Of a stretch of 64,000 nucleotides of DNA, positions 2,665-35,382 are shown piece by piece. The notes beneath the pieces are model-generated. The model searched no databases. It had not been told where the DNA came from and saw only the letters and a list, made by a program, of their open reading frames with translations. The DNA is from Minisyncoccia bacterium (GTDB taxonomy: Bacteria > Patescibacteriota > Minisyncoccia > Phycocordibacterales > GWA1-40-21), in assembly GCA_049695975.1 (NCBI GenBank), contig JBAVTE010000027.1, forward strand, positions 32,972 through 96,971, read 5' to 3'. How positions within the stretch are numbered: the stretch's first letter is position 1; each line of letters begins with the position of its first letter. The position numbers were made by a program, and so were the translations under genes.

Positions 2665-3379
2665 TTCTTATCTACAACTTGGCAGTGTCGAAGCTTTGGT
2701 CGTCCGCAAGCCGATCAAGAATTTGCATCTTTCGGTTTTACCTCCCAATGGCTGGGTGCGTGTGACCGCACCGGCCAATATGAAAGACGATGCTATCCGC
2801 ACGCTCTTAGCTTTGAGATTGCCGTGGATTAAGAAACAGCAAGCCAAATTTACCGGTCAAGAAAGGCAAACTAAGCGTGACTATTCGTCTGGTGAGAGTC
2901 ATTACTTTTTTGGCAAACGCTATCGCCTTGAAGTGGTTTATAAAGACGAAGCACCGGTTGTTACCTTGAAAGGCAAAAATAAGATTATTTTACAGGTTCG
3001 GCCAAAGAGCCCAGCAATCAAACGTCGAGAAGTGATGATGGATTGGTATCGCAAGGAATTGCATGTGATTGTTGGTGATCTAATTGCTAAGTGGCAAAAG
3101 AAAATAAGCGTAGAGGTTAAATTCTGGGGCATCAAGCAGATGAAGACTCGCTGGGGTACGTGCAATCATAAAAAGGCACGAGTCTTGATAAATTTAGAGC
3201 TGGCCAAAAAGCCGATTGCCTGCGTGGAGTATGTCGTAGTCCACGAGCTATTGCATTTGATTGAGAAAAAACACAGCGACAAATTTGTCGCCTTAATGAC
3301 AAAATATATCCCGAAATGGAAAGGCATAAAAGAAGAACTGAACAGCTTTATTTTGTCGTACGAGGAGTGGAAGTATTAA
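2654..3379 (+). CDS. DUF45/YgjP-like HExxH metal-dependent hydrolase, commonly linked to hsdR
   Basis: HELLHL zinc-binding motif and WGTCN motif. The ATG at 2654 overlaps the hsdR stop (ATGA), suggesting translational coupling. Confidence 0.6.
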   Translation: MSTNSYLQLGSVEALVVRKPIKNLHLSVLPPNGWVRVTAPANMKDDAIRTLLALRLPWIKKQQAKFTGQERQTKRDYSSGESHYFFGKRYRLEVVYKDEAPVVTLKGKNKIILQVRPKSPAIKRREVMMDWYRKELHVIVGDLIAKWQKKISVEVKFWGIKQMKTRWGTCNHKKARVLINLELAKKPIACVEYVVVHELLHLIEKKHSDKFVALMTKYIPKWKGIKEELNSFILSYEEWKY

Positions 3380-3450
3380 CCTTGACTAGTAAAAATAGGC
3401 TGTAATTTGCTATCGAAAAATTTTCGATAAACTGATATAATTATTGTAGT

Positions 3451-4518
3451 ATGAAATCACAATCCTCAAAAATTAAAGTCGTTGATTTATTTTGTGGCAT
3501 TGGTGGACTGACACACGGTCTTATCAAGGAGGGTTTAGATGTGGTCGCAGGAATTGATAACGATTCAAGCTGTAAATTTGGATATGAATACAACAACAAG
3601 GCTCAATTTATTGACAGCGACATTCTTAAGGTAACACCAGACCAAATCAATAAATTATTTGGTACAAAAAAAGGCACGATCCGTGTTCTTGCTGGTTGTG
3701 CCCCTTGCCAGCCATTTTCAAGATTGAATCTAAAAAAAGTTACCGAAAAACAACTTGAACCTTTGGGTAAATTTGCTCAACTTATCGCGGCTATTCAGCC
3801 TGACATTGTCTCGATGGAGAATGTTAGTGGTTTAGCTGATACAAATAAATATCCCGTCTTTGCAAAATTTATAAAGACACTGGATGATAATGGGTATAAA
3901 TATAAATATGAAGTAGTAGATGTCTCAGAATTTGGCGTACCTCAAAAACGAAAACGATTAGTTTTACTGGCTTCAAAGTTTGGTGAAATTGAATTGATAA
4001 AAAGAACTCACAAAGATAAGCGAGTTACTGTTCGTGATGTCATCAAACACCTTGAACCAATCAAAGATGGTCAAACAAGCAAAAAAGACCCTCTTCATAA
4101 GGCAAGAAAACTTGATCAAATAAATCTTTATCGAATCAAGGCGACTCCGCACAATGGTGGAAACTCAGAAAGTTGGAGTGAAGATTTGATGCTTGCTTGC
4201 CACAAAAAAGCATCTGGGAAAACCTATCGGAGTACCGTATATGGCCGAATGAGATGGGATGAACCAGCACCGACTATGACAACGCAATGCATAGGTCTAG
4301 GGAATGGTCGTTTTGGTCACCCAACACAAAATCGTGCTATAAGTTTAAGGGAGGCCGCAATATTTCAAACATTCCCTGAAAATTATAAATTTACCGAGTC
4401 CGAAGACTCTATGGTGGTTACTAAAGTAGCAAAGTTTATTGGAAACGCAGTACCCGTAAGGCTGGGATCAGTCATTGGCAAGAGTATCAAGAATCACGTT
4501 AGACAATATGAAAAATAA
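3451..4518 (+). CDS. dcm: DNA (cytosine-5)-methyltransferase
   Basis: Motif I DLFCGIGG, motif IV GCAPCQPFS, motif VI ENV, motif VIII QKRKR, motif X GNAVPV. Confidence 0.9.
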   Translation: MKSQSSKIKVVDLFCGIGGLTHGLIKEGLDVVAGIDNDSSCKFGYEYNNKAQFIDSDILKVTPDQINKLFGTKKGTIRVLAGCAPCQPFSRLNLKKVTEKQLEPLGKFAQLIAAIQPDIVSMENVSGLADTNKYPVFAKFIKTLDDNGYKYKYEVVDVSEFGVPQKRKRLVLLASKFGEIELIKRTHKDKRVTVRDVIKHLEPIKDGQTSKKDPLHKARKLDQINLYRIKATPHNGGNSESWSEDLMLACHKKASGKTYRSTVYGRMRWDEPAPTMTTQCIGLGNGRFGHPTQNRAISLREAAIFQTFPENYKFTESEDSMVVTKVAKFIGNAVPVRLGSVIGKSIKNHVRQYEK

Positions 4519-6211
4519 TAACACATTCTCATTCGAAATCTCATTAAGTGTTCTGAATCATCTCGGAAGGAACTTGTACAGGAATTTTATTACTGTACTT
4601 GGTGAAGCGATATCTAATTCATGGGATGCAGATGCAAATAATGTTTGGATAGATATTAATAGCGATAATAATTTTTTTATAAAAGATGATGGTTGTGGAA
4701 TGAATAACCACGATTTTCAGAATAAATTTTTGAAAATCGGCTACTCAAAGAGAAAGGGTAACGGAATATCCTCTCCGAATCATCGTCCATATATCGGTGC
4801 AAAGGGAATAGGTAAATTGGCGTTGCTTTCATGTGCTGAAAAAATAAGTGTCATATCCAAAACCAATAACACTGAATATGTCGGAGGTGTTATAGACAAT
4901 TCTGGTCTTACTAAAGCGATTGAACACGATCTGACCCCAGATAAGTATAAATTAGGAAAGGTGGATTTGAAATCATTCACGCAATATACAGCTGGGCATA
5001 AAAAAGGCACTATTATCTATTTTGATCAAACTAAAGAAGATATAAAAGGCACAATCCCGCATTTGAAGAAATTGATTGCATTATATTTTAGATTTTCTTT
5101 GATTGATGAGAGTTTTAAAATTTTTGTAAATAATGAACAAGTGACGTTTGGTGATATAAAGGACCTGTCAGATGCAACGGAATTTTTATGGAATATCAAC
5201 GACCTAAAAGATCCATATACCGACACATTATCCAAGCTCAAGAATGAGTCAATCGGTTTAAGCACTGCGTTGAAAATCAAAGGTTTTATCGCGACTGTTG
5301 AAAAACCGAGAAATTTAAAAATCGCTGGTACTGAGGAAAAAATCGGTATTGATTTATTTGTTAATGGACGATTAAGAGAAAGGGATATTTTAAAATACTT
5401 GCCTGCTTTTTCGACAAGACATATAGCGAGTTACCTTTATGGTCAAGTGCATTTTGATGAATTAGATAAGGATGGAAAAGATAGGTTTACTAGTAGTAGA
5501 GACGGGATCATTCCTGGAGATGAAAAATATAAAGGATTAATCGAAACTTTGAGAAATGAAATCCTAGAAAAAATTAGTAATAAGTGGGATGAACTTCGCT
5601 TGGCCAGAGATGAAGATGGTGATGATGAGAATCCAAGAAAAACCCTAAAAGAACGCAGAGCGCTCAGCTTGTACAACCTTTCATCAAAGGATTATTCAGG
5701 CGTTAAAAACAACAAAGTTGGTTCCTGGGTTAAAGAATTGCAACCAGATGCGGAATTCAATATCCCGTCATATGTCGACTGTTTTATATCGGAAAACCTT
5801 ATACGAAAATTTATCAAGCATAAAAAAATATCTCTTGATACCAAACGTGACACAATTAATCATTGGAAAAAAATTGAGAATACAGGAAAGACCAACGGTA
5901 ATTTGACTATTGATATAAGAGTTTCAAACGATGATATCTATTATTTGGATATGGAAAATCTTGTGAAAGTCACAGAGCCTAGAAGAGGGTTTCCTCCGAA
6001 TACTTTACTTACAGACGAAACACAGTTTACTCCTATAAGAAATGCTGTTATGCATACGGCTATGTTAACTGACCAAGCAAAGCAAAAGTTAACGACCGTC
6101 TATGAAAATATTAAAGGAAAAGTATTGATTCTTTTGGCTGATAAGAAGAAAGCTTCGACTAAAAGTATCAAAAAAACTAAAAAAGGTAGGGCAAATAATC
6201 TACTAAAGTAA
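4508..6211 (+). CDS. GHKL/HATPase_c_3 (paraMORC-like) ATP-binding protein, translationally coupled to dcm
   Basis: Bergerat-fold motifs EAISNSWDA, IKDDGCGM and GAKGIGKLA. The ATG at 4508 overlaps the dcm 3' end by 11 nt (alternative start at 4475). The C-terminal ~300 aa have no recognised domain. Confidence 0.65.
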   Translation: MKNNNTFSFEISLSVLNHLGRNLYRNFITVLGEAISNSWDADANNVWIDINSDNNFFIKDDGCGMNNHDFQNKFLKIGYSKRKGNGISSPNHRPYIGAKGIGKLALLSCAEKISVISKTNNTEYVGGVIDNSGLTKAIEHDLTPDKYKLGKVDLKSFTQYTAGHKKGTIIYFDQTKEDIKGTIPHLKKLIALYFRFSLIDESFKIFVNNEQVTFGDIKDLSDATEFLWNINDLKDPYTDTLSKLKNESIGLSTALKIKGFIATVEKPRNLKIAGTEEKIGIDLFVNGRLRERDILKYLPAFSTRHIASYLYGQVHFDELDKDGKDRFTSSRDGIIPGDEKYKGLIETLRNEILEKISNKWDELRLARDEDGDDENPRKTLKERRALSLYNLSSKDYSGVKNNKVGSWVKELQPDAEFNIPSYVDCFISENLIRKFIKHKKISLDTKRDTINHWKKIENTGKTNGNLTIDIRVSNDDIYYLDMENLVKVTEPRRGFPPNTLLTDETQFTPIRNAVMHTAMLTDQAKQKLTTVYENIKGKVLILLADKKKASTKSIKKTKKGRANNLLK

Positions 6212-8138: not shown

Positions 8139-8744
8139 ATGGTTTTGTTTTTAATTGGAACTTTATTATTAATTTTTATAATTAATGTCATTCCGGCATT
8201 TATGCCACCGACGTGGATTTTACTTTCTTTGGTAGGTTATAATTTTCATTTAAACAATTACAATTTGGCGATACTGGCGGTTTTGGCTGCAGTAGCTTCA
8301 TCCGGGGGACGAGCTATTTTAGCTATTTTATCAAATAAAATTTTACGTTACAAAATTATTTCAGACGAAACTAAACAAAATTTGGATATCTTGAAAGAAA
8401 ATATCATAAAAAGAAAAAATTTTACGAAGGGTTTCTTTTTATTCTATGCTTTTTCGCCGTTTCCCTCGGGGCAGTTATTTTTAGCTTACGGTATGACTGA
8501 TCTTAAACTAAGTCTGGCAATTATTCCATTTTTTATTGGTCGTTTAAGTAGTTATTTCTTTTGGATTTTTGCTTCTTCCGAGACATCAAAAATAATTGAT
8601 TTAAATTCTTTTAAATTCGGTGCATATTTCGGTGTATATTTTATTTTGGGACAAATTTTTGCTTTATATTTGGTTTATTTAATTGCCAAAATAGATTGGA
8701 AAGTTCTATTTGAAGAATACAAATTAAGAATTATAAATAAATAA
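8139..8744 (+). CDS. Polytopic membrane protein, DedA/VTT-like
   Basis: Multiple TM helices. The PAFMPPTWILLSLVG segment resembles the DedA/YqaA re-entrant motif. Confidence 0.45.
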   Translation: MVLFLIGTLLLIFIINVIPAFMPPTWILLSLVGYNFHLNNYNLAILAVLAAVASSGGRAILAILSNKILRYKIISDETKQNLDILKENIIKRKNFTKGFFLFYAFSPFPSGQLFLAYGMTDLKLSLAIIPFFIGRLSSYFFWIFASSETSKIIDLNSFKFGAYFGVYFILGQIFALYLVYLIAKIDWKVLFEEYKLRIINK

Positions 8745-8942
8745 TTAAAAAACACTTATTTTTTTGACTTTTTTTATTCTAATTTGTTGAATATATATTT
8801 TTTAGCTTGATATATTGTTTTTAATAAAATTCAATTGCAAATTTTACTACTGGGTGATATAAATATATGGTAATTATTGGAAGGGTTAGTCCCTTTTATT
8901 TTTGTGTCAATTTATTAGTAAATTAATTTATTTTTTAAGAAA

Positions 8943-11606
8943 ATGTCAAAGAAAATAAAGTATGTGTATGCGTTTGAGGAAGGAAATAAAAGTATGAAAG
9001 AAATTCTTGGAGGAAAAGGAGCAAACCTCGCAGAGATGAAAAGTTTAGGTATCAATGTTCCACCAGGGTTTACCATTTCTACCGAAACTTGTAGAATTTA
9101 TAATGAAATTGGAAAGAAAATTCTTCCTGAAGTTGACGCACAAATACAGAGTAATCTTGTGAGTCTCGAAAAGAAAATGGGAAAAAAGCTTGGTGATGCT
9201 ACAGACCCTCTTCTTGTTTCTGTACGTTCTGGAGCTGTTGCATCGATGCCTGGAATGATGGATACTATTTTAAATCTTGGACTTAATGATAAGTCTGTCG
9301 TTGGTCTTGCAGAAAAGACGGGTAATGCGAGATTTGCATATGACTCATATAGAAGATTGATTCAAATGTTTGGTTCAGTTGTTCTCGAAGTTGAACATTC
9401 TGCCTTTGAGCATATTTTGGAATCAGTAAAAGATACTTGTGGTGCAAAGTACGATACTGATTTGACTGTGGAAAATTTGAAGGAGATTGTAAAAAAATAC
9501 AAGGAAATGGTGAAGAAAGAAACGAAGGCTGAATTTCCTCAGGATCCAAAAAAACAACTCGAACTTTCTATAAAAGCAGTTTTTAATTCTTGGAATAATT
9601 ACAGAGCTATAAGATATAGAGAAATAAATAATATAAAAGGACTCATCGGAACGGCTGTAAATATTCAGGCAATGGTTTTTGGAAATCTTGGTGATGACTC
9701 CGGAACGGGAGTTTGTTTTACTAGAAATCCGTCTACAGGGGAAGCAAAGTTTTATGGTGAATATCTGATGAATGCGCAAGGTGAAGATGTTGTTGCTGGT
9801 ATCAGAACCCCGCTTCCAGTTTCAGCATTGAAGACTCAGAGTCCGAAAATTTATAAAGAACTTGTAGATGTGTGCAATAGAGTTGAGAAGCATTACAAAG
9901 ATATGCAGGATATGGAATTTACGATTCAGCAAGGAGTACTATATATCTTGCAAGCGAGAAATGGAAAGAGAACAGCTACTGCCGCGGTGAAAATTGCTGT
10001 AGATATGGTGAAAGAAAAACTGATCACAAAAGAACAAGCAATACTTAGAATTGACCCAAATCAGCTTAACCAGCTTCTTCACAAACAGTTTGACCCTATC
10101 GCATTAAACAAGGCAGAAGCCATTGCACAGGGTCTTCCAGCGTCTCCAGGTGCAGCCGTGGGAGAAATAGTCTTTACTGCGACAGATGCATTTGAAAAGA
10201 CGAAGAAAGGCTTGGATGTAATTCTTGTTAGAATAGAAACTTCCCCAGAAGACATTGACGGAATGCACAGTGCAAAAGGAATTTTAACTGCAAGGGGTGG
10301 TATGACTTCCCATGCAGCTGTCGTCGCAAGAGGAATGGGAACTTGCTGTGTTGCTGGATGTTCAGATTTGACTATAAATGAAAAAGCAAAAACCTTGATA
10401 GTAAAAGATAAAGGAATTACTTTGAAGGAGGGAGATTTTATTTCACTTGATGGTTCAACAGGAAAAGTTTATGAAGGCAGACTCACTACAGAAGACCCAG
10501 AACTTTCTGGTGACTTTGGTACTTTGATGGCATGGGCTGATGGTTTCCGAAAAATCGGTGTTAGAACAAACGCAGATACTCCGACAGATGCAAAAATGGC
10601 AAGAAAATTCGGTGCGGAAGGTATTGGTCTTTGCAGAACAGAGCACATGTTTTTTGAAGGTAATAGAATTAAAGCCGTAAGAGAAATGATTCTTTCAAAT
10701 GATGTGGAAAGTAGAAAGAAAGCTTTAGCAAAACTTTTACCATATCAGAGAGAAGATTTTGTTGGCCTATTCCATACTATGGAGGGATTCCCAGTAACTG
10801 TGAGATATTTGGACCCACCACTTCACGAATTTTTACCTACAAAAGAAAAAGATATTGCTGAACTTTCTAAAGAAATGAAAGTTAGTGTTGAAATTCTCAA
10901 AGCAAAAATAGATGATCTTCATGAGTTTAATCCTATGCTTGGTCACAGAGGTTGCCGACTTGCCATTACATTTCCAGAAATTTACGATATGCAGACAAAT
11001 GCTGTGATAGAAGCAGCGATTCTTGTCAGCAAAAAGTGTCCTATTTGCGGAAAGAAACACAAAGTTGTTCCTGAAATAATGATTCCTTTAGTTGCTACCA
11101 CAAAAGAATTTGCTGTTTTGAAAGATAGCGTTGTCAAAATAGTAGAAGCAAGACTCAAAGAAGCAAAGATTAAAATGAATTATAAAATTGGAACAATGAT
11201 AGAAGTTCCGAGAGCAGCTCTCGTCGCAGACAAGATAGTAGAAGCTGGCGCAGAATTTTTCTCTTTTGGAACAAATGATCTCACGCAAATGGGTGCGGGA
11301 CTTTCAAGAGATGATGCAGGAAAATTCCTCAAAGAATATGTTGCACAAAATATTTATGAATTCGATCCATTTGAAGTCCTAGATCAAGAGGGGATCGGTG
11401 AGCTCATAAGAATTGCTATCAAGAAAGGAAGAGGTGTAAAGAAAGATTTGAAAGTCGGAATTTGTGGAGAACATGGTGGTGAACCTAGAACTGTGGAGTT
11501 CTGCCACAGAGAAGGATTTTCTTATGTTTCTTGCTCGCCATTCCGAGTGCCTATCGCACGACTTGCAGCAGCACAGGCGGTAGTAAAAGAAAAAGCAAAA
11601 AAATAG
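8943..11606 (+). CDS. ppdK: Pyruvate, phosphate dikinase
   Basis: 887 aa. N-terminus YAFEEGNKSMKEILGGKGANLAEM. PEP-utilising His motif GGMTSHAAVVARGMG. C-terminal PEP/pyruvate-binding domain present. Confidence 0.92.
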   Translation: MSKKIKYVYAFEEGNKSMKEILGGKGANLAEMKSLGINVPPGFTISTETCRIYNEIGKKILPEVDAQIQSNLVSLEKKMGKKLGDATDPLLVSVRSGAVASMPGMMDTILNLGLNDKSVVGLAEKTGNARFAYDSYRRLIQMFGSVVLEVEHSAFEHILESVKDTCGAKYDTDLTVENLKEIVKKYKEMVKKETKAEFPQDPKKQLELSIKAVFNSWNNYRAIRYREINNIKGLIGTAVNIQAMVFGNLGDDSGTGVCFTRNPSTGEAKFYGEYLMNAQGEDVVAGIRTPLPVSALKTQSPKIYKELVDVCNRVEKHYKDMQDMEFTIQQGVLYILQARNGKRTATAAVKIAVDMVKEKLITKEQAILRIDPNQLNQLLHKQFDPIALNKAEAIAQGLPASPGAAVGEIVFTATDAFEKTKKGLDVILVRIETSPEDIDGMHSAKGILTARGGMTSHAAVVARGMGTCCVAGCSDLTINEKAKTLIVKDKGITLKEGDFISLDGSTGKVYEGRLTTEDPELSGDFGTLMAWADGFRKIGVRTNADTPTDAKMARKFGAEGIGLCRTEHMFFEGNRIKAVREMILSNDVESRKKALAKLLPYQREDFVGLFHTMEGFPVTVRYLDPPLHEFLPTKEKDIAELSKEMKVSVEILKAKIDDLHEFNPMLGHRGCRLAITFPEIYDMQTNAVIEAAILVSKKCPICGKKHKVVPEIMIPLVATTKEFAVLKDSVVKIVEARLKEAKIKMNYKIGTMIEVPRAALVADKIVEAGAEFFSFGTNDLTQMGAGLSRDDAGKFLKEYVAQNIYEFDPFEVLDQEGIGELIRIAIKKGRGVKKDLKVGICGEHGGEPRTVEFCHREGFSYVSCSPFRVPIARLAAAQAVVKEKAKK

Positions 11607-11623: not shown

Positions 11624-11668
11624 AAACCAGCCCCCGCCAATCAGATTGGCGGGGGCTGGTTTGTTTTA
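11624..11668 (+). terminator. Strong rho-independent terminator after ppdK
   Basis: AAACCAGCCCCCGCCAATCAGATTGGCGGGGGCTGGTTTGTTTT. Confidence 0.8.
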
Positions 11669-11673
11669 CTATT

Positions 11674-11737
11674 ATCGTTGACGATAATTTATTTTGCAGT
11701 ATCATTGTACTAAGGTTTAACAATTAAATAAACAAAA
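11674..11737. repeat. 64-bp direct repeat, copy A, containing a promoter-like element (63/64 identical to 18301-18364)
   Basis: ATCGTTGACGATAATTTATTTTGCAGTATCATTGTACTAAGGTTTAACAATTAAATAAACAAAA. Contains TTGACG and TATCAT boxes and a near-palindrome ATCGTTGACGAT. Confidence 0.85.
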
Positions 11738-11819
11738 TAACAACATATAAGATAAAAGTTGACTGATTTTTTTTAATATTTATTTCATACTACTTTATCG
11801 ACGATTTTATAGAATAAAA

Positions 11820-12785
11820 TTAAGTCAAAAGAAGACCTACCATATTTTGTTTGGCCAAATCAAAGTAATACTTACTTATAGCTAGGTCAAAAATCGCCAT
11901 ACCCATAGGATTAAACATCACATTTCTTTTATTAATAAAGAAATTATTTTTTTCATTTAATATATCTACTATCGTTTTGGTATCATTTTTTTGTAGCCCA
12001 CATTCTTTTTGAAACATTTCAATATCAGTGTTTTCTCTACAAACTTCTTCCCAATCATCTACTACAATATTACCTTTTACATACTCAAATATTTTTGGTT
12101 TAAAATCTCTCAGTGAAACGTTTAGAAGCAAAGATCCTTCTTTGGGTATTTGATCAATATATCTAGAATCTGACACTGTACAAGTTATAACTATATCTGA
12201 ATCTTTATAAGCCTCCTGCCAGCTATCAGTAATTATTATTTTATCTTTATCTGTTTCATCTATATTATCTTGTTCAATCTTTTTTAAATCATATAAACAA
12301 TATTTATTTATTTTATTTCCAAATAGTTTACTACACATTTTATAATGAAATTTTCCGATTGGTCCCCACCCTATTATTCCAACAGTTAAATTTTTTCTAG
12401 CACATTGGTCTATGAAGTTTTTTATTATTAAACCACTGACTGAGGCCGTCCTAATAATACTAATGAGGGAAGTATTTATAGAACTCATAATTTCACCAGT
12501 ATCAGCATTATTAAGAACTATTATACTATTTGCTCTTGGTTTACCAATTTTTATATTTTCTGGAAAGCTTGCAATCCACTTTATGCCAGCGACATTAAAA
12601 TTTCCTCCAAGAAAAGCGGGCATTGCAATAATACGATTTTTTAAATTTTTATAACGCAGATATGGTTTTATTGGTTGAGTATAATCTCCCACAGCATAAC
12701 ATTTTACAGCTTCATTTATTATTTCTATAGTTTTATTCCAATCTATACCAATTTTTAATATATCTTTTTCGTTTAAATAAATCAT
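11820..12785 (-). CDS. Ornithine cyclodeaminase/mu-crystallin family NAD-dependent enzyme, SbnB-like
   Basis: Rossmann motif GIIGWGPIG and OCD-family length. Lies immediately downstream of (co-directional with) the SbnA-like gene, as in sbnAB. Confidence 0.65.
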   Translation of the reverse strand: MIYLNEKDILKIGIDWNKTIEIINEAVKCYAVGDYTQPIKPYLRYKNLKNRIIAMPAFLGGNFNVAGIKWIASFPENIKIGKPRANSIIVLNNADTGEIMSSINTSLISIIRTASVSGLIIKNFIDQCARKNLTVGIIGWGPIGKFHYKMCSKLFGNKINKYCLYDLKKIEQDNIDETDKDKIIITDSWQEAYKDSDIVITCTVSDSRYIDQIPKEGSLLLNVSLRDFKPKIFEYVKGNIVVDDWEEVCRENTDIEMFQKECGLQKNDTKTIVDILNEKNNFFINKRNVMFNPMGMAIFDLAISKYYFDLAKQNMVGLLLT

Positions 12786-12791
12786 AATTAT

Positions 12792-13748
12792 TTAATCTAA
12801 TTTACCAAAAAATTTGTTACACCAATTTTTATTGTAGATTGTATTAATGTATCGTTCTCCCCGATCAGGAAAAATTGTAACAACCGTTACTTTATTTTTA
12901 ATTTGTTTATTAATAAAATATTGTTCTATAGCAGAAAATACTGAACCTGAAGAACCACCAGCAAACAAGGAATGATCTTTTAATAGTTTGTGACAAGATT
13001 TTACTGCATCGTTTTCAGGTATAGTTATTATCTCATCAATTTTTGCATTTTTTAATATATCTGGCACGATACTTGATCCTATACCTGGTATGTAGCGCTT
13101 TTCGGCTTTACCACCGAAGATTACAGATCCCTTTGTGTCGACAGCAATTACTTTACAGTTGGGAAATTGTTCTTTTATTTTTCTCGAAACACCAGTAATG
13201 GTTCCTCCAGATCCAACCCCTATAAATATATAATCAATTTTTTGTAAGCTGTCACATATTTCTTTACCAAGTGTTTCGTAGTATGCTTGTGCATTATCTG
13301 GATTGGCATATTGATTTACCCAATATGAATTTATAACCCTATTTAAAAATTTTTTTACTTTTTTAATCCTGTTTATTAAATATCCTCCGCTTTTGTCTTT
13401 ATCTAATACTTTAATTACTCCAGTACTTAATTGATTAAGAAGATATTCATTAGTTTTTGAAATATTAGGATCTATGACACAATAAAATTTTAATCCATTT
13501 ATTTTGCAATAAGTTGCCAAAGATATTCCAAAATTTCCAGATGAGGATTCTATAATTGCTGTTTCTTTGGATATTTTACCAGATTTAAGTAGTTTATCAA
13601 TAATAAAAATAGCAGGACGGTCTTTTATACTTCCTGTTGGATTAAAAGATTCCAATTTTATAAAAAGATCAATATAATTCAGACTTTTAAGTTTGACTTT
13701 GACTAATGGCGTATGACCAACATTATTTAGAGATTCTACAGGTGGCAT
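12792..13748 (-). CDS. PLP-dependent cysteine synthase-fold enzyme, SbnA-like
   Basis: PLP-lysine motif SIKDR and glycine-rich loop GVGSGGTITG. CysK/CysM/SbnA family. Confidence 0.7.
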   Translation of the reverse strand: MPPVESLNNVGHTPLVKVKLKSLNYIDLFIKLESFNPTGSIKDRPAIFIIDKLLKSGKISKETAIIESSSGNFGISLATYCKINGLKFYCVIDPNISKTNEYLLNQLSTGVIKVLDKDKSGGYLINRIKKVKKFLNRVINSYWVNQYANPDNAQAYYETLGKEICDSLQKIDYIFIGVGSGGTITGVSRKIKEQFPNCKVIAVDTKGSVIFGGKAEKRYIPGIGSSIVPDILKNAKIDEIITIPENDAVKSCHKLLKDHSLFAGGSSGSVFSAIEQYFINKQIKNKVTVVTIFPDRGERYINTIYNKNWCNKFFGKLD

Positions 13749-13926
13749 AACATTTTAATATATAAGATTATAACATTATGACCCATTTGACAATGGCAAC
13801 GCTTTACACTACCATATAGTGAGTTTAGTGTTCTTTGAGATACTCTAAAATACAGTTGAGGAAAAAGCCTGTTTCTACGGAATTTCAGCAAAAACCATCG
13901 AAATCTAACCATGAAAGGAGATGTTT

Positions 13927-14931
13927 ATGAGGATATTAATTCTGTATAATCTCGCCAAGATAGTTAAGAAAGGGATTACTAACGATCTGGTTTGTGAGAA
14001 GGAGATTGAAATCATCGTGCCTTTAATAGTTGATTCATTACTTGCACGAGGACATCAAGTTAAAACACTTGAAACAGATCGAAATGTTTGGGAAAAATTA
14101 AAAAAACTCAAACCTGAGATTGATATTGTTCTTAATTTAGCCGAAGGTTTTGGGGGATGTAACATAAACGAAACATTTGTGCCAGCATTATTAGAGGCAT
14201 TAGAGATTCCGTTTACTGGAGCTTCTTCCCGAAACATGATGTTTACGATGGATAAGGAAAAAACAAATCTTGTTTTAGGTGCTTACAATATACCTACACC
14301 TTGTCGAAAATTATTTAGACAAGGACAAAGTAAATTTATTGAGTTAGGTTTGAATTTTCCCGTCATCGTAAAACCCGTTAGAGAAGAGGCTAGTATCGGT
14401 ATTACTTATGATAGTGTCGTCTCAAATCACAAGGATCTTGTTGATAAAGTAGATCGTGTGTTTAAACTTTATCAACAATCGGCTCTTGTTGAAGAATTCA
14501 TAGAGGGTAGAGAAATCTCTGTAGGAATCATTGGAAATGGCACTAATGTCCATGTTTTTCCACCACTCGAGTTTATATTTGAAGATTCTATTCCTGTTTT
14601 AAAAAGAATTAGATCTTATGAATATAAATGGGATGGTGGAAAAGAAGCTATGACCAAAGCAAAGTTACCCGACGATTTGATTACTAAGTTACAGGAGTAT
14701 ACGAAAGTTGCTTACTTAGTAACGGATTGTCGGGATTATGCAAGGATGGATTATCGGTTGACGGATAAGAACGAAATATTTTTACTTGAAGTCAACTATA
14801 ATCCTGGAATTGGACCAAATACTCATGGTCTAAATAATACATTGACCATGATGGCAAGCTTTGAAGGTCATTCATTTGAGGATCTCATCGAATGGATTAT
14901 TTTCACAGCCAAGGAAAGATATGTTTCTTGA
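13927..14931 (+). CDS. ATP-grasp ligase, D-Ala-D-Ala ligase-like
   Basis: FPVIVKP, EEFIEGREISV and the Mg-binding LEVNYNPG motif. AAGGAG sits upstream. The start could be 13921 or 13927. Confidence 0.7.
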   Translation: MRILILYNLAKIVKKGITNDLVCEKEIEIIVPLIVDSLLARGHQVKTLETDRNVWEKLKKLKPEIDIVLNLAEGFGGCNINETFVPALLEALEIPFTGASSRNMMFTMDKEKTNLVLGAYNIPTPCRKLFRQGQSKFIELGLNFPVIVKPVREEASIGITYDSVVSNHKDLVDKVDRVFKLYQQSALVEEFIEGREISVGIIGNGTNVHVFPPLEFIFEDSIPVLKRIRSYEYKWDGGKEAMTKAKLPDDLITKLQEYTKVAYLVTDCRDYARMDYRLTDKNEIFLLEVNYNPGIGPNTHGLNNTLTMMASFEGHSFEDLIEWIIFTAKERYVS

Positions 14932-14995
14932 TTGTATAATGGGGGAGGTGATTAGAAGATAATCATCCTCCCCCATTTTTTATAAAAATTAAATT

Positions 14996-16357
14996 ATGAT
15001 AAATAAAATTTCAAATATAATAATTGCTAATGAAGCAGAGGCTTTTGATAAAATTCTTTGTAGGATTAAAAATGTTAATCAGCGAACAGTAAGGATTAGG
15101 AACGAACACTATCTTTCAAATAGAGCACTTTTTTGGCAAGATGATGATAAAATTATTATTACTCCATTTCCGATTCAAAAAATATTACTTAGGATTGCAA
15201 ATAACACCTTAAATATGCAAAATGTAGAGAACTGGTATCCAAATAATATTGATATAAGTTTGTCTGCTGCAATTATTAAAGATAAGAAGTTATGGAAAAA
15301 ACTTAAAAATACTATAAAAAATAATCCTCAAGTAACTTTATCCCCCTATTCCTATACTAGTGAATTTAGTAAATTAATCAATCTTTTAAGAAAAGAAAAA
15401 ATACATTTCAATGTTGATCAGGAGTCTATTCCTAAATCTGAGTGGTTAACATCATATCTTGGCTCTAAGGTTGGTTTTAGACTAGAAAGTCTGAAATTGA
15501 GCATATTTAAGAAAAATTTTCCAACCACAAAATTTTTCATTTGTGAAAACAAAACAGAAGTAATAAATGTTGTCGCATGGTTTTATAAGAACAAAATGTC
15601 TTGTGTTATTAAGACATCTTATGGTGAGGGTGGTTGGGGATTAATAATGATTAATAAAAATAAATATAATTCAATCGCAAGATTAAAACAGTACATTAAT
15701 GATTTGATGGAAAAAGATCCTATATGGAGTGCGGGTCAATTTGTAGTTGAGGAATTAATTTTATCATATAATAAAAATTATTTAAATTCACCATCATTAG
15801 AAATCTTTGTTGATAATATTGGTCCGACTATAACATATGTATGTAATCAAATTGTAAATAAATCCGGTGAATTTATTGGCATATTGATGGGAAAAGATTG
15901 TATTGATAATAAAATTAAAAAATCTATGTATAATATCGGAAAAATAATTTCCAACAGATATTGGAGTTTGGGTTACCGGGGTTTTTTTGATATAGATTTT
16001 ATTGTTTCTAAGAATAAAACACTTTTCCCAATTGAGACTAACACAAGAAGAACTGGGGGGACACATGTCTTTGATTTGACTAAAAAAATCTTTGGTAAAT
16101 ATTGGGATAAAAAAATAGTAGTACTTTCTTTTGATTCTTTTAATTATGGAAAAACAATTTTCTCGGCTGAAATAATTATAGAAAAAATGTCAAAAATAAC
16201 CTTTCCAATAAATGGAGAAAACGAAGGTGTCGTAATTACCATTATTAGTCAGTATAAACCAGTGTTTGGTTTTATAATTTTTGCTTCAAATAAACACAAG
16301 GTAATGAAAATATACAAAAAATTGACAACTATTTGGAATAAGGATATTGTTAAATAA
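14996..16357 (+). CDS. Second ATP-grasp-fold protein (PGM1-like peptide ligase-like)
   Basis: VIKTSYGEGGWG glycine-rich loop. VEELILSY and FDIDFIV...ETNTRRTGG resemble ATP-grasp Mg/ATP motifs. Confidence 0.5.
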   Translation: MINKISNIIIANEAEAFDKILCRIKNVNQRTVRIRNEHYLSNRALFWQDDDKIIITPFPIQKILLRIANNTLNMQNVENWYPNNIDISLSAAIIKDKKLWKKLKNTIKNNPQVTLSPYSYTSEFSKLINLLRKEKIHFNVDQESIPKSEWLTSYLGSKVGFRLESLKLSIFKKNFPTTKFFICENKTEVINVVAWFYKNKMSCVIKTSYGEGGWGLIMINKNKYNSIARLKQYINDLMEKDPIWSAGQFVVEELILSYNKNYLNSPSLEIFVDNIGPTITYVCNQIVNKSGEFIGILMGKDCIDNKIKKSMYNIGKIISNRYWSLGYRGFFDIDFIVSKNKTLFPIETNTRRTGGTHVFDLTKKIFGKYWDKKIVVLSFDSFNYGKTIFSAEIIIEKMSKITFPINGENEGVVITIISQYKPVFGFIIFASNKHKVMKIYKKLTTIWNKDIVK

Positions 16358-16359
16358 CT

Positions 16360-16866
16360 ATGAAAAAAATAATTCTTAATGTAAAAGCATTTCAAGAGAC
16401 TTTGCATGCTAGTATGTGCGGACCAGCTTCTCTAAAAATCGTCTTTAGTTATTACGCAATTAATAAAAGTGAAAAAGAATTATCCCTTTTGGCAGGAACA
16501 ACAAGTGAATTGGGAACTGATGATAAAGGTATTGTTCGAGCAGCAAAATCACTCGGTTTTAAATGTGTTGTAAAAAATAGAAGTACTTTTTCTGATATTG
16601 AAAAGTGGCTTAAAAAAGGAGTTCCTGTGATTGTTGATTGGTTTACACGTGGACGTGTCGATTATTCTTCTTCTGAAGTTGCAGATGGGCATTTGTCTGT
16701 TGTTATTGGTCTTGATGATAAACATATTTATATTCAGGATCCAGAAATAGGAGAGATACGAATTATGGCAAGAGATGATTTTATGAAAGTTTGGTTTGAT
16801 TTTTCAGGAGAATTTATTAAGCCAAATGAATTGATTATTAGACAAATTATCGTTATCTATAAATAA
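16360..16866 (+). CDS. Peptidase C39-like (papain-fold) domain protein
   Basis: Catalytic Cys context SMCGPASL and downstream His (DGHLSVVIG). 168 aa, standalone domain. Confidence 0.55.
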   Translation: MKKIILNVKAFQETLHASMCGPASLKIVFSYYAINKSEKELSLLAGTTSELGTDDKGIVRAAKSLGFKCVVKNRSTFSDIEKWLKKGVPVIVDWFTRGRVDYSSSEVADGHLSVVIGLDDKHIYIQDPEIGEIRIMARDDFMKVWFDFSGEFIKPNELIIRQIIVIYK

Positions 16867-18255
16867 ATGTTTGAAAAATATCATTTATCTAATAATGCAC
16901 AAATATTAACTAGTTCTGTCCCTGGACAGGAATCCTTAAAATTATTAATCGACCAAGAAAAATATGAGAGTAATAATCGATCATATCCTAGAGACATTCC
17001 TTTGGCTTTTGATTTAGCTAAAGGATCAATTTTACAAGACATTGATGGAAATAGATATATTGATTTTACTTCTATTTGTGGGGTTTTTAATCTGGGACAC
17101 AATAATGAATATATTTTAGAAAGAATGAAATCTATGGAAGGTAAAATATCTCAATCTGTTGATTATCCTACAACTGTAAAAATTAATTTTTTAAAATCCT
17201 TACTTGAGGCTTTGCCAGAGACTTTAAAGGGAAAGTGTAAAGTAAATTTTGGAGGTCCATCTGGTTCTGATGCTGTAGAAGCTGCAATTAAGTTGGCTAG
17301 AATAAACAAAAAGAGACATTCAGTCATAGCTTTTCATGGAGGATATCATGGAATGACGATGGGGGCCTTAAGCGTAACGAGTAAACTATCTCACAGAAAA
17401 GATGCCTCGCCGTTAATTCCTGGAGTTCATTTCTTACCCTATTGTAGTTCTTATAGATGTCCATTTGCTCATGGAGAAAACGGATGCCAACAAGAGTGTA
17501 TAAAATACTTTAAATATGTTTTAGAAAACCCTCATTCTGGAATAGATAAACCTGCCGCTATCATTATTGAACCAATTCAAGGAGAGGGTGGAACATACAT
17601 TCCTCCTGAGGGATGGTTAGAAGCTATAACAAAAATTGCTCACGATAATGACATTCTTGTTATTTTTGATGAAATTCAGTCTGGTTTTTACAGAACAGGA
17701 AGATTGTTTTCTTTTGAACATACAAAAGCTGTGCCAGATATTATTACTATGTCAAAAGGTATAGGAGGAGTAGGTTTTCCTCTCTCACTAATAATATATA
17801 AGAAAGAACTTGATATTTGGGAACCAGGAACTCACATAGGTACTTTTCGAGGTAGTCAATTAGCCATGGCTGCAGGTACAGCGGCTTTACAGTTTATTAA
17901 AGATTTTAATATTGAAAATTATGTAAGTGATCTAGGAAAGAAAATGCTTGATCGATTAACTATTATTAAAAACGTATCTTCCTATATTGGAGAGGTTAGA
18001 GGTATTGGTATGATGTTTGGAATAGAATATGTAAAAGATAAAAAAAGCAAAGAACCATTTGCTGATATGGCCACTGAAGTTAAGAAAAAGTGTTATGAGA
18101 ATGGTTTAATCGTAGAAAAAGGTGGCTATTATAATAATGTAATTAGGTTTCTTCCTCCTCTTATTACTACTCAAATAATTGCACAAAATGGATTGGATAT
18201 TTTTGAAAAAGCTAATAAATTAGCAGAAGTAATGAATACGAAAAAAGATTATTAA
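16867..18255 (+). CDS. Class-III PLP aminotransferase (diaminobutyrate/omega-amino acid transaminase-like)
   Basis: DEIQSGFYRTG motif and PLP-lysine in TMSKGIGG. Start abuts the preceding stop (TAAATG). Confidence 0.8.
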   Translation: MFEKYHLSNNAQILTSSVPGQESLKLLIDQEKYESNNRSYPRDIPLAFDLAKGSILQDIDGNRYIDFTSICGVFNLGHNNEYILERMKSMEGKISQSVDYPTTVKINFLKSLLEALPETLKGKCKVNFGGPSGSDAVEAAIKLARINKKRHSVIAFHGGYHGMTMGALSVTSKLSHRKDASPLIPGVHFLPYCSSYRCPFAHGENGCQQECIKYFKYVLENPHSGIDKPAAIIIEPIQGEGGTYIPPEGWLEAITKIAHDNDILVIFDEIQSGFYRTGRLFSFEHTKAVPDIITMSKGIGGVGFPLSLIIYKKELDIWEPGTHIGTFRGSQLAMAAGTAALQFIKDFNIENYVSDLGKKMLDRLTIIKNVSSYIGEVRGIGMMFGIEYVKDKKSKEPFADMATEVKKKCYENGLIVEKGGYYNNVIRFLPPLITTQIIAQNGLDIFEKANKLAEVMNTKKDY

Positions 18256-18300
18256 TTTTTTTATAAATGACAAATTTATATAAAGTGATTATTGGATAAA

Positions 18301-18364
18301 ATCGTTGACGATAATTTATTTTGCAGTATCATTATACTAAGGTTTAACAATTAAATAAACAAAA
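18301..18364. repeat. 64-bp direct repeat, copy B, immediately upstream of the CAP-domain gene start
   Basis: 63/64 identical to 11674-11737. Ends 3 nt before ATG 18367. Confidence 0.85.
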
Positions 18365-18366
18365 AT

Positions 18367-19212
18367 ATGATAAATTTTTCTGAACAATTTGAACCAAAAA
18401 ATTCTTCTAAAAGAACGCAGACTTATAGTGCGATTGCTTTTACTTTATTTTTACTCGCGGTCATTATTATCGGTCAGACAAATATATTCCCCAATGTATC
18501 TAATTTTGTTTCTACAAAGGTTTCTACACTTGCCGATGTTATCTCTTCAGTGCTTGTTTTCGAAACAAATAATTTTAGAGCATTAAATAATGAAAATAGA
18601 TTAGTTGTGAGCTCCTTACTTACCCAAGCAGCACAGCTCAAGGCTGATGATATGGCGAGAAAAGGTTATTTTTCGCACATTTCGCCAAATGGTGATGAGC
18701 CATGGATATGGTTTGATAAAATAGGTTACAAATATGATTATGCTGGGGAAAATCTTGCTGTTGATTTTAATGAATCGACCGATGTCACTTCAGCCTGGAT
18801 CAATTCTGCCAAGCATGAAGCAAACTTATTGAATACACATTTTACTGAAATGGGTGTCGGTATTGCAAAAGGTATGTATGAAGGACATGTGACGAACTAT
18901 GTAGTTCAGTTTTTTGCTTCACCTTTGACTGCAAAAATAAACACAGCTGAAGTGAATCAAAAGAGCATAGTTCCATCTGTAGGAAATGAGCCGATCATTT
19001 TACAATTTTCTGCATTTACAAGTCCGACAGTAGCTGTCGCTACTAGATCGACTCCCTCAGACGGGGCCATTCTCGGTGCGGAAACACAAAGCAAAAAGTT
19101 AAATCAAAATACTGATAATCAAATGCAAACATTTGTGATTGCACTTATGGCCATTATTGTCCTTTTTCTCGTAGTTGTAATGACGAAAAAAAGAAAGTTT
19201 AAAAAAAGCTAA
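18367..19212 (+). CDS. Membrane-anchored CAP/SCP/PR-1-like domain protein
   Basis: N- and C-terminal TM helices. CAP motifs GYFSHISPNGDEPW and HEANLLNTHFTEMGVGIA. Confidence 0.6.
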   Translation: MINFSEQFEPKNSSKRTQTYSAIAFTLFLLAVIIIGQTNIFPNVSNFVSTKVSTLADVISSVLVFETNNFRALNNENRLVVSSLLTQAAQLKADDMARKGYFSHISPNGDEPWIWFDKIGYKYDYAGENLAVDFNESTDVTSAWINSAKHEANLLNTHFTEMGVGIAKGMYEGHVTNYVVQFFASPLTAKINTAEVNQKSIVPSVGNEPIILQFSAFTSPTVAVATRSTPSDGAILGAETQSKKLNQNTDNQMQTFVIALMAIIVLFLVVVMTKKRKFKKS

Positions 19213-19214
19213 AA

Positions 19215-34575: not shown

Positions 34576-35382
34576 ATGCAAGATAATTACGAGAGATTAG
34601 GTGTATATTATAAAGCTATGAAAAAAAATAAAAAAATACATATTGCCGTTTTATTTGGTGGAAAATCGGCTGAACATGAAGTATCAATTAGGTCGGCACA
34701 AAGCATTTATAATGCTCTTGATAAGCAAAAATATGACATTACTCTTATTGGCATAGATAAAAATGGTGTTTGGATTCCTTTTAATACGGAGAAATTACTT
34801 TCCAGCAAGAGAATACTTTTGAGTGAACAAAATATGAATGTTAGCACAGCTGTAGCCTCTTATGGTACTAATGGAGAATTTTTAGCAAAGAAAGGTAATG
34901 GTGGTATGAAAAAAGTTGACATTGTCTTCCCGGTTCTTCACGGTCCTTTTGGCGAGGACGGCACAATTCAAGGTTTGTTAAAGTTAGCTAATGTCCCTTT
35001 TGTCGGAGCGGGTGTTCTAGGTTCGGCGGTTGGAATGGATAAAGATGTTGCGAAGAGACTTTTACGAGATGCCGGTCTACCGACTGCCCACTTTCATGTT
35101 TATAACGAATATGAGAAAAAAACTATTTCATTTGAAAAAATTAAGGTAAACCTTGGATTACCATTTTTTATTAAACCAGCAAATCTCGGATCTTCTGTTG
35201 GTATCACAAAGGTTCATAATAAAGCTGAATTTTTAAAGGCAATAAATTCTGCATTTCACTATGACAATAAAATCCTTATTGAGGAATATATAAGGGGCAA
35301 GGAAATTGAGTGTTCTGTATTAGGTAATGGAAAGCCAACCGCATCAGTTTGTGGGGAAATTATTCCTCATCAATCCTCCTAG
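34576..35382 (+). pseudogene. ddl: D-alanine-D-alanine ligase, C-terminally truncated (about 95 aa missing)
   Basis: N-terminal and central ATP-grasp domains are intact (VLHGPFGEDGTIQGLL, FIKPANLGSSVGI). It stops just before the expected FYDYEAKY/Mg-binding region, and the truncation coincides with the left edge of the inserted island. Confidence 0.6.

Follow-up and report, generated by a model that had tools for sequence, protein, structure and literature searches.

A Patescibacteria-specific cassette encoding two ATP-grasp ligases and putative diamino-acid supply enzymes, bracketed by a 64-bp direct repeat

Several bacterial pathways assemble short peptides without a non-ribosomal peptide synthetase (NRPS). 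The ATP-grasp dipeptide antibiotic systems include dapdiamide from Pantoea, bacilysin, which depends on BacD, and rhizocticin, which depends on RizA/B. The ATP-grasp enzymes PGM1 of the pheganomycin pathway, BesA, and the Streptomyces "ATP-grasp peptide ligase" (PDB entry 8ynd) form an amide between a carboxylate and the amino group of either an amino acid or a peptide, and BesA is the gamma-glutamyl ligase of terminal-alkyne amino acid biosynthesis. A non-proteinogenic building block, L-2,3-diaminopropionate (L-Dap), is produced by the SbnA/SbnB pair of staphyloferrin B biosynthesis in Staphylococcus aureus, in which SbnA performs the first step, the condensation of O-phospho-L-serine with L-glutamate, and SbnB the second. 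Bacteria of the candidate phyla radiation (CPR), or Patescibacteria, are usually described as near-devoid of biosynthesis and dependent on their hosts for amino acids. Here we analyse a six-gene cassette at positions 11674-18364 of a 64,000-nucleotide stretch of the genome of a Minisyncoccia bacterium (contig JBAVTE010000027.1, positions 32,972 to 96,971; hereafter the window). The cassette combines an SbnA/SbnB-like pair with two ATP-grasp ligases and is bracketed by a 64-bp direct repeat. Taken as a whole, with the proposed mechanism and the origin of the repeat included, the interpretation that the cassette consists of divergent operons for an NRPS-independent amide-ligase pathway belonging to a Patescibacteria-specific family is, on balance, probable.

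The cassette is organized in two operons transcribed away from each other. On the minus strand, the gene of an SbnA-like pyridoxal-phosphate (PLP) enzyme of the PALP family (12792-13748) is followed by that of an NAD-dependent dehydrogenase of the ornithine cyclodeaminase (OCD)/SbnB family, with an OCD/mu-crystallin fold (11820-12785). The plus strand encodes a paralog of Ddl-type ATP-grasp ligases, which we call ddlL (13921-14931), a second ATP-grasp ligase, AG2 (14996-16357), a 168-residue papain-fold Cys-His enzyme resembling C39 peptidases and PeiR (16360-16866), and a class-III aminotransferase (16867-18255). The AG2 and C39-like genes are separated by 2 nt, and the start codon of the aminotransferase directly follows the stop codon of the C39-like gene (16866/16867). 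The 172-bp intergenic region between the two operons (13749-13920) contains a TTGACA-17-TACCAT promoter-like match and an AAAGGAG ribosome-binding site in front of the Ddl-like gene. Domain assignments made earlier from the letters of the window (the sequence-only reading) were confirmed for all six genes by Pfam and NCBIfam profiles.

Eighty loci were recovered in one scan of species-representative genomes. The genes of the Ddl-like ligase, AG2, and the C39-like enzyme are adjacent and co-directional in about 30 of these, from about 30 Patescibacteria species, and AG2 and the C39-like gene are neighbours in nearly every complete triad locus. The sbnA-sbnB pair is attached to the triad in 10 loci and the aminotransferase in 11, with varying order and orientation. 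The conserved core of the cassette is the ligase-ligase-C39 triad, to which the SbnAB pair, the aminotransferase, and a KamA-type aminomutase are variably attached. Homologs of AG2 with 35-57% identity come almost exclusively from metagenome-assembled genomes (MAGs) of Patescibacteria, including Berkelbacteria, Paceibacterota, Moranbacteria, Yanofskybacteria, Daviesbacteria, and Taylorbacteria. The C39-like family comprises at least 1,725 sequence clusters, of which the top 120 share 65-89% identity across CPR classes, and the Ddl-like family comprises at least 1,050 clusters, with 59-69% identity across CPR classes among the matches listed. The clusters of the component families are almost all from CPR MAGs. 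A few Ddl-like records have been assigned to Aminicenantes, Victivallales, Nanoarchaeota, or Smithella, for which mis-binning is the most likely explanation. The sequence-only reading had considered the cassette unusual for a reduced, CPR-like genome, which the distribution contradicts: the cassette is a widespread, lineage-wide, modular, and uncharacterised Patescibacteria family, typical of the radiation. What had been described as an antimetabolite or siderophore island foreign to a minimal genome is better seen as one mosaic copy of a lineage-wide, occasionally mobile cassette. In the literature that could be searched, we found no paper linking Patescibacteria with SbnA and no published description of the cassette.

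The Ddl-like ligase matches the Dala_Dala_lig_C domain (E = 1.4e-30) and remains below the cutoff of every Ddl/Van model, the best being PRK01372 (143.9 versus 243 bits) and TIGR01205 (133.3 versus 245.65). Twenty-five members of the family were aligned with Escherichia coli DdlB, the numbering of which is used here. The ATP-binding, magnesium-binding, and catalytic residues and the first-site glutamate are kept (E15, K97, K144, E180, K215, R255, D257, E270, and N272). Residues of the D-alanine site are replaced, essentially invariantly within the 25 members, by the exchanges Y216W, S150A, S281G, and H63G. Judged from these residues, the enzyme is a catalytically intact ligase with a second-substrate pocket unlike that of any true D-alanine--D-alanine ligase. 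It therefore shares with the Ddl and Van enzymes the fold, the complete ATP, magnesium, and catalytic set, and Glu15, but differs from them in the replacement of S150, Y216, and S281 by alanine, tryptophan, and glycine and in being encoded beside a second ligase rather than among mur genes. The window also contains a canonical ddl gene (34576-35382, plus strand; 301.7 bits, cutoff 262), and thus ddlL is a paralog. The canonical gene is truncated at its 3' end: its 268-residue product covers profile positions 2-257 of 366 and aligns with residues 5-195 of E. coli DdlB. No continuation was found downstream in any frame. The region with K215, R255, D257, E270, and N272 is lacking. The truncated gene could be a pseudogene or the result of a deletion or of an assembly join. 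NCBI and JGI annotate members of the ddlL subfamily in many CPR MAGs as "D-alanine--D-alanine ligase" (records P0245-P0360).

The second ligase, AG2, produces weak matches to the family profiles ATP-grasp_4, pre-ATP-grasp, BesA, and LdmS, and the match to the BesA equivalog NF042917 (27.5 bits) is far below the cutoff of 750. Sequence-profile comparison with solved structures identified 8ynd, BesA, and PGM1 with E-values from 1e-7 to 3e-11. The AlphaFold model of AG2 has a mean predicted local distance difference test score (pLDDT) of 91.2, and a Foldseek search aligned it along its full length, including the pre-ATP-grasp domain, with 8ynd, 3wvq, and 8yi6, PGM1 and BesA among them (TM-scores 0.70-0.81, E = 1e-18 to 3e-23). 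Biotin carboxylase and PurK followed far behind. The invariant ATP-grasp residues of AG2 are K206, E252/E253, D332/D334, E347, N349, and R351. According to the predicted structure, AG2 is a peptide ligase of the PGM1/BesA fold with a pre-ATP-grasp domain. The resemblance to PGM1, BesA, and 8ynd extends over the entire fold; nevertheless, AG2 is only 12-16% identical to these enzymes, belongs to a CPR-specific clade, and is not accompanied by genes for a precursor peptide, halogenase, or alkyne formation. An exact-protein look-up of AG2 returned no record. Distant AG2 paralogs with 23-28% identity (loci L034-L081) lack the partner genes. They are surrounded by conserved housekeeping genes and provide no clue to function.

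The C39-like protein scores above the thresholds of PF03412 (47.9 versus 22 bits) and of PF13529, Peptidase_C39_2 (51.7 versus 24). It is a stand-alone, cytoplasmic protein with no signal peptide and no ABC transporter part, and residues Q12, C20, H111, and D127 are invariant in 20 homologs. The model of the protein has a pLDDT of 84.9, and its best match in the PDB, by sequence as well as by structure, is the pseudomurein endoisopeptidase PeiR. Other close structures are the peptidase domains of PCAT1 and ComA and the acyl-transferring enzymes Alr0975, which is phytochelatin-synthase-like, and CtaG. With PCAT1, ComA, and PeiR, the cassette protein shares the papain-like fold and the Gln/Cys/His/Asp set, but it lacks an ABC transporter, wall-binding repeats, a signal peptide, and a nearby substrate with a GG leader. 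The acyl-transferring relatives (Alr0975, CtaG, and BtrH-like proteins) match it nearly as well as PeiR and the C39 peptidases do. No ABC-exporter fusion or partner was detected, and ABC-transporter models matched the peptidase domain only. A C39-like homolog with 82% identity is encoded without an ATP-grasp gene on an 18.8-kb metagenomic contig (ENA ERZ1426827, context P0124), in an apparently tandem-duplicated block that includes Fic, NUDIX, AAA_18/CPT-like kinase, C39-like, 255-residue protein, and N6_N4 methyltransferase genes.

The minus-strand pair was compared with the enzymes of staphyloferrin B biosynthesis. The SbnA-like protein reaches 403.5 bits against the SbnA equivalog TIGR03945, above the cutoff of 349.95, versus 234.7 and 219.4 bits against the cysKM and cysK models. 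It scores 286 bits against the S. aureus SbnA structures 5d84-5d87, to which it is approximately 50% identical, and 178 bits against the best CysK/CBS structure. Equivalents of R132 and Y152 are kept; the position of S185 is occupied by glycine with a serine one residue further, in an alignment with a PDB entry that is itself the Y152F/S185G variant. The dehydrogenase scores 312.0 bits against the SbnB equivalog TIGR03944, 15 below the cutoff of 326.9, and the next family follows at 107 bits, which is 205 lower. Its best PDB match is S. aureus SbnB (4m54, 138 bits), ahead of alanine dehydrogenase (68 bits). On these scores we file the dehydrogenase as SbnB-like. The earlier preference for SbnA/SbnB over a cysteine synthase and a generic OCD enzyme was thus justified, with the SbnA-like protein passing its equivalog threshold and the SbnB-like protein standing far above any other family while remaining below its own. 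The adjacency of a PLP enzyme and an OCD-fold NAD enzyme is shared with the staphyloferrin B locus. Unlike that locus, the cassette contains no NRPS-independent siderophore synthetases of the SbnC/E/F type, decarboxylase, aldolase, receptor, or exporter, and the partners of the pair are two ATP-grasp ligases. The suggestion of a siderophore-like compound was rejected, since there is no IucA/IucC-type synthetase, receptor, or exporter in or beside the cassette.

The aminotransferase passes the cutoff of the diaminobutyrate--2-oxoglutarate transaminase family TIGR00709 (429.3 versus 401.6 bits) and scores 475 bits against PRK06938, in agreement with the proposed link to L-2,4-diaminobutyrate (L-Dab). 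Identity as the ectoine enzyme was rejected, because the score against the EctB equivalog is 378 with a cutoff of 552. A KamA-family radical-SAM aminomutase (TIGR03822, 222 bits; TIGR00238, 190.5 bits with a cutoff of 199) is missing from the window and present in 11 triad loci. In the closest cassettes (L167, L017, and L002), the KamA-type gene fills the intergenic slot between sbnA and the ligase genes. Diamino or beta-amino acids are the products expected of all three accessory modules, which is the main reason for assigning such substrates to the ligases.

Based on the predicted activities of the enzymes, a mechanism of peptide assembly can be proposed. SbnA and SbnB would produce L-Dap from O-phosphoserine and glutamate, and the aminotransferase would form L-Dab from aspartate semialdehyde. 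In genomes with KamA, beta-lysine or a similar beta-amino acid may be supplied. The Ddl-like enzyme would couple two building blocks via an acyl-phosphate, and the PGM1-like ligase AG2 may add a further residue, resulting in a short cationic di- or tripeptide. An (iso)peptide bond of this product would then be hydrolysed or transferred by the C39-like enzyme, either to turn the product over or to pass it to an acceptor. The product is likely a short cationic peptide containing Dap or Dab, and it presumably stays in or on the cell, since the cassette encodes no exporter, regulator, or immunity protein. The same absences, together with the very high conservation of the proteins, favour a physiological metabolite or envelope component over a classical antibiotic. 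An NRPS-independent ATP-grasp peptide pathway, as had been suggested before, is the most reasonable reading of the enzyme set. There are precedents for the individual combinations: in glutathionylspermidine synthetase/amidase, an amide synthetase that uses ATP has as its partner a Cys-His amidase for the same product, and in mycosporine biosynthesis MysC and MysD place an ATP-grasp ligase in series with a Ddl-like ligase. In these precedents, however, the partner folds and families differ, and the cassette has no glutathione, polyamine, or cyclohexenone genes. Dapdiamide-type systems, as described, likewise combine a Dap supply pair with ATP-grasp ligases, but the cassette contains no genes for fumaramoyl, epoxide, or phosphonate warheads, no exporter, and no resistance gene, and it is CPR-wide rather than sporadic. 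The six cassette proteins gave no hits to anti-phage defence models (PADLOC). A tripartite exporter operon with an HlyD-like adaptor, an ABC ATPase, and a MacB/FtsX-type permease is located 4.3 kb downstream of the cassette (22530-26066), and homologs of this trio lie 2.5-6.5 kb from the triad in locus L010. The operon could be a coincidental neighbour or a distant exporter of the product.

The cassette is bracketed by two direct copies of a 64-bp sequence, both in plus orientation. Copy A (11674-11737) lies between the terminator of ppdK and the 3' end of the sbnB-like gene, and copy B (18301-18364) ends 2 nt before the ATG of a gene for a membrane-anchored CAP/YkwD-domain protein (18367-19212, plus strand; PF00188, 1.1e-14; TIGR02909, 4.6e-27), which flanks the cassette and is outside the pathway. 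The copies are identical at 63 of 64 positions and differ at repeat position 34, where copy A has G and copy B has A. When up to three mismatches were allowed, they were the sole matches in the window, and none was found in 100 dinucleotide-preserving shuffles. When the copies were globally aligned together with 60 nt of their flanks, no convincing homology was seen past the 64-bp edges, which are sharp. The bracketing of six genes by two near-identical repeats and the position of copy B directly ahead of the CAP gene were thereby upheld. Copy A begins 11 nt past a strong hairpin terminator of ppdK (11624-11662, plus strand; 18-bp stem with 11 G-C pairs in the terminator scan), is separated by 82 nt from the stop codon of the sbnB-like gene, and is followed by no open reading frame of its own. 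The hairpin is potentially bidirectional, because T/A runs flank it on both sides, and could also terminate the sbnA-sbnB transcript. Copy B begins 45 nt past the stop codon of the aminotransferase.

A TTGACG-16-TATCAT match, noted before as a promoter-like element, is present in both copies of the repeat. Consensus promoter matches are no more common in this AT-rich region than in shuffled sequence (41 found, 38.6 expected), so that interpretation of the repeat as a promoter depends on the location of copy B in front of the CAP gene. By its position, copy B would be the promoter and 5' leader of that gene. The element is not a generic multi-copy promoter, as it occurs twice in the window and is absent from the other cassette loci that were fetched. 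An Rfam scan of the intergenic regions and the repeat produced nothing near gathering scores for riboswitches or small RNAs. A palindrome-like motif, ATCGTTGACGAT, opens the repeat (11674-11685), and a related ATCGACGAT occurs at 11796-11806, 60 nt downstream of copy A, within the spacer that separates this copy from sbnB. The motif may be a protein-binding site or may have arisen by chance in AT-rich DNA.

Several properties of the cassette point to its mobility. The best matches differ by module: the SbnB-like and SbnA-like proteins are 73% and 76% identical to those of L017 and 58-63% identical to those of other loci; the triad is closest to that of L167 (69/57/78%), whose SbnAB proteins are only 58-59% identical; and the aminotransferase is closest to that of L008 (71%). 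We infer from these differences that the cassette in the window is a mosaic copy. No flanking genes are common to it and any other cassette locus, and the closest metagenomic relative of ppdK, found in one scan anchored on this gene, is 76% identical and has no neighbours in common. The G+C content at third codon positions (GC3) is 0.195 in the cassette, with five of the six genes between 0.16 and 0.21, compared with 0.267 in the rest of the window (Mann-Whitney p = 0.005; p = 0.008 after removal of a GC-rich restriction island), and a local maximum of tetranucleotide deviation coincides with the cassette. In the Patescibacteria MAG contig JBAZHE010000011.1 (L013), a seven-gene version of the cassette (KamA, sbnA, sbnB, ddlL, AG2, C39, and aminotransferase) and an additional small gene are enclosed by two copies of an ISNCY-family insertion sequence (IS), which have the same orientation, at 1-153 and 8380-9841. 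One copy is complete, and the other is cut off by the end of the contig, with only its terminal 130-150 bp or so present. The transposase reaches 352.9 bits (cutoff 250), and terminal inverted repeats are visible. The arrangement in L013 is composite-transposon-like. In the nearest sampled relatives, L022 (6082-7316) and L029 (8164-9113), a 5'-truncated AG2 gene of 242 and 147 codons, respectively, is directly followed by an intact C39-like gene, and there is no Ddl-like gene. The cassette is decaying in these genomes while the C39-like gene is retained. The remnant and the C39-like gene of L029 are located between a CAP-like gene, about 0.6 kb upstream of the remnant, and a homolog of the YchF-type GTPase gene of the window.

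We propose that recombination moved the mosaic cassette to the intergenic site between ppdK and the CAP gene and left the 64-bp promoter and leader of the latter on both sides. The near-identity of the copies indicates that the event would have been recent. As direct copies with perfect segments of 33 and 30 nt, they would also allow occasional precise loss of the cassette by homologous recombination. Insertion or re-insertion by recombination appears somewhat more likely than a purely local rearrangement. The 64-bp bracket and the IS-flanked homolog in L013 together suggest that the module moves or rearranges as a unit. The nearest tRNA genes form a cluster of four just downstream of pyrG (21891-22428; Val-CAC on the plus strand and Pro-CGG, Ala-CGC, and Ala-GGC on the minus strand), 3.5 kb from copy B; they are not adjacent and provide no obvious integration target.

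A number of observations weigh against the interpretation proposed here, with respect to both the pathway and the repeat. The score of the SbnB-like protein is 15 bits short of its equivalog cutoff. The aminotransferase requires aspartate semialdehyde, the supply of which by this genome could not be demonstrated, and the order of ligation and the third building block are guesses. Members of the C39-like family are also encoded where the ligases are missing, as on contig ERZ1426827, or where AG2 is truncated, as in L022 and L029, and their function may therefore be independent of the ligase product. With respect to mobility, the window has flanking direct repeats of the kind expected for an integrative island, but no integrase or transposase was found within about 12 kb on either side of the cassette, and the two flanking IS copies that define a composite transposon are absent from the window, although present in L013. 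An empty ppdK-CAP site was found neither by exact-protein look-ups nor by the metagenome scan anchored on ppdK; the look-ups with the CAP, ppdK, SbnB, aminotransferase, and C39-like proteins returned only Logan contigs of the same strain. None of about 33 other cassette loci has comparable short bracketing repeats, the IS copies of L013 being the only bracketing elements. Finally, the CAP-like gene close to the AG2 remnant in L029 suggests that cassette and CAP may have been neighbours for a long time, in which case the cassette would not be a new arrival. The earlier claim of a horizontal insertion with duplication of a promoter has indirect support: low GC3, mosaic matches, the lack of conserved flanks, and the IS-flanked locus agree with it, and the missing integrase, the missing empty site, and the CAP neighbour in L029 do not.

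The last point leads to the alternative that the cassette is an old, vertically inherited resident and the repeat a local scar, produced for example by tandem duplication of a segment comprising the CAP promoter, CAP, and the cassette, followed by reciprocal deletions. We regard such a history as possible but not probable. It would explain why cassette, CAP, and YchF-type GTPase genes are neighbours in both lineages (the flanking YchF-type GTPase gene is 69-76% identical in L029 and L022), why the AG2 remnants of these loci are among the closest to AG2 of the window (56-57%), and why there is no mobility gene in the window. Against this history speak best matches that change from module to module and the significantly lower GC3 of the cassette, and the 82-bp and 45-bp spacers beside the repeats contain only chance-level AT-rich matches and no remnant of CAP or of other parts of the window. 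Moreover, the order of the genes relative to CAP differs between the window and L029.

A different function of the same enzymes has to be weighed as well. The triad and the diamino-acid modules may build or remodel a cytoplasmic peptidoglycan-type precursor, such as a non-canonical terminal dipeptide or, attached to the stem peptide, a side chain or cross-bridge of Dap, Dab, or beta-lysine. In such a pathway, the dipeptide would be the product of the Ddl-like enzyme. AG2 would have the part played by the ATP-grasp D-aspartate ligase in decorating UDP-MurNAc-pentapeptide, and an isopeptide bond would be trimmed by the C39/PeiR-like enzyme. The Ddl fold with its intact Glu15 and catalytic set fits this role, as does the identity of the closest solved relative of the C39-like protein, which is a cell-wall endoisopeptidase specific for pseudomurein. 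Diamino acids are classic cross-linking residues of peptidoglycan, the canonical ddl gene of the window is truncated, and the conservation of the C39-like and Ddl-like families without exporter or immunity genes suits housekeeping better than antibiotic production. However, mur, fem, and fts genes never recur beside the triad in about 30 loci, the pocket residues S150, Y216, and S281 of D-alanine ligases are all replaced, and the cassette is patchy and decaying in the close relatives L022 and L029, which would be unexpected for an essential wall function. On this evidence, a role in the synthesis of wall precursors is unlikely. A more speculative extension, to which we assign a still lower probability, is that the product is a non-canonical envelope peptide specific to Patescibacteria, forming a stem terminus or diamino cross-bridge, and that its genes are exchanged between lineages as a mobile cassette. 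If this were true, many "Ddl" annotations and peptidoglycan reconstructions of CPR bacteria would describe a different chemistry.

PGM1, the fold of which is shared by AG2, attaches a non-proteinogenic acid to a ribosomal peptide (PMC8939145). A hybrid pathway similar to that of pheganomycin can be envisaged, in which the C39-like enzyme cuts the GG leader from a ribosomal peptide encoded elsewhere and AG2 caps the N-terminus with a Dap/Dab unit produced by the Ddl-like ligase. Removal of leaders is the function of C39 peptidases, the catalytic set of the cassette protein is intact, and the AG2 and C39-like genes are closely linked, 2 nt apart here and adjacent in nearly all complete triad loci. 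Nevertheless, the cassette contains no plausible small open reading frame, no two of about 33 loci have a family of small open reading frames in common within 3 kb of the triad, and no ABC exporter is fused or adjacent to the C39 domain. Graspetide loci described from CPR bacteria differ in gene content (PMC8939145). The hybrid pathway is accordingly improbable.

The integrity of the locus was examined in the Logan assembly of SRR28012095, an independent k = 31 assembly of data from the same strain. All four junction sequences were recovered with 100% identity, on contigs extending from ppdK to 11703, from 11677 to 15785, from 15878 to 18330, and from 18304 to 19765, all of which are 100% identical to the window. 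The contigs end within the 33-bp perfectly shared segment of the repeat; therefore, they alone cannot distinguish an integrated cassette from an empty site accompanied by a 6,627-bp circle. Counted from the left and right ends of the repeat, the G/A difference is at 34 and 31 nt, respectively, within 35 nt of either flank, so that any read, or any assembly with k of at least 35, ties each flank to its own variant. Because of this linkage, we infer that the integrated arrangement in the window is real. An assembly artefact, in which the chromosome would carry an empty ppdK-repeat-CAP site and the 6,627-bp segment, a separate circle or part of a co-occurring strain, was threaded through the repeat, is extremely unlikely: the k = 31 graph forms a two-in/two-out node that fits both configurations equally, and the composition of the cassette is mildly atypical, but the difference at repeat position 34 should phase both flanks, the public MAG contig bearing these proteins is 126.5 kb long, and a 6.6-kb circle would have no replication gene.

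Two other regions of the window are of note. A restriction-modification island at 25-6211 has a GC content of 38-45%, clearly above the rest, and the largest tetranucleotide deviation in the window. It encodes a type I HsdR-like helicase, a YgjP-like metallopeptidase, a C-5 cytosine methylase, and an HATPase_c_3 protein, which matches PADLOC models of type II restriction enzymes. Further downstream, the segments 36893-38056 and 39402-40310 contain a radical SAM/SPASM-type maturase-like gene with an unusually high GC3 of 0.41 and, nearby, an LD-carboxypeptidase gene (Peptidase_S66), a homolog of which, 50% identical, lies about 5 kb from the triad in L033.

Beside the relevance of the cassette to CPR biology and annotation, the 64-bp repeat itself is a minor structural detail. 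More than 1,000 clusters of the ddlL type carry the Ddl label despite scores below the cutoffs and the absence of the D-alanine pocket residues, which can distort metabolic reconstructions. The cassette represents a new variant of ATP-grasp peptide assembly without an NRPS. For bacteria considered almost devoid of biosynthesis, it is a compact and highly conserved exception, an investment in non-proteinogenic diamino acids joined by two ATP-grasp ligases. The six-gene set is a concrete target for heterologous expression, which could reveal a new small peptide or envelope component relevant to the episymbiotic lifestyle of Patescibacteria.

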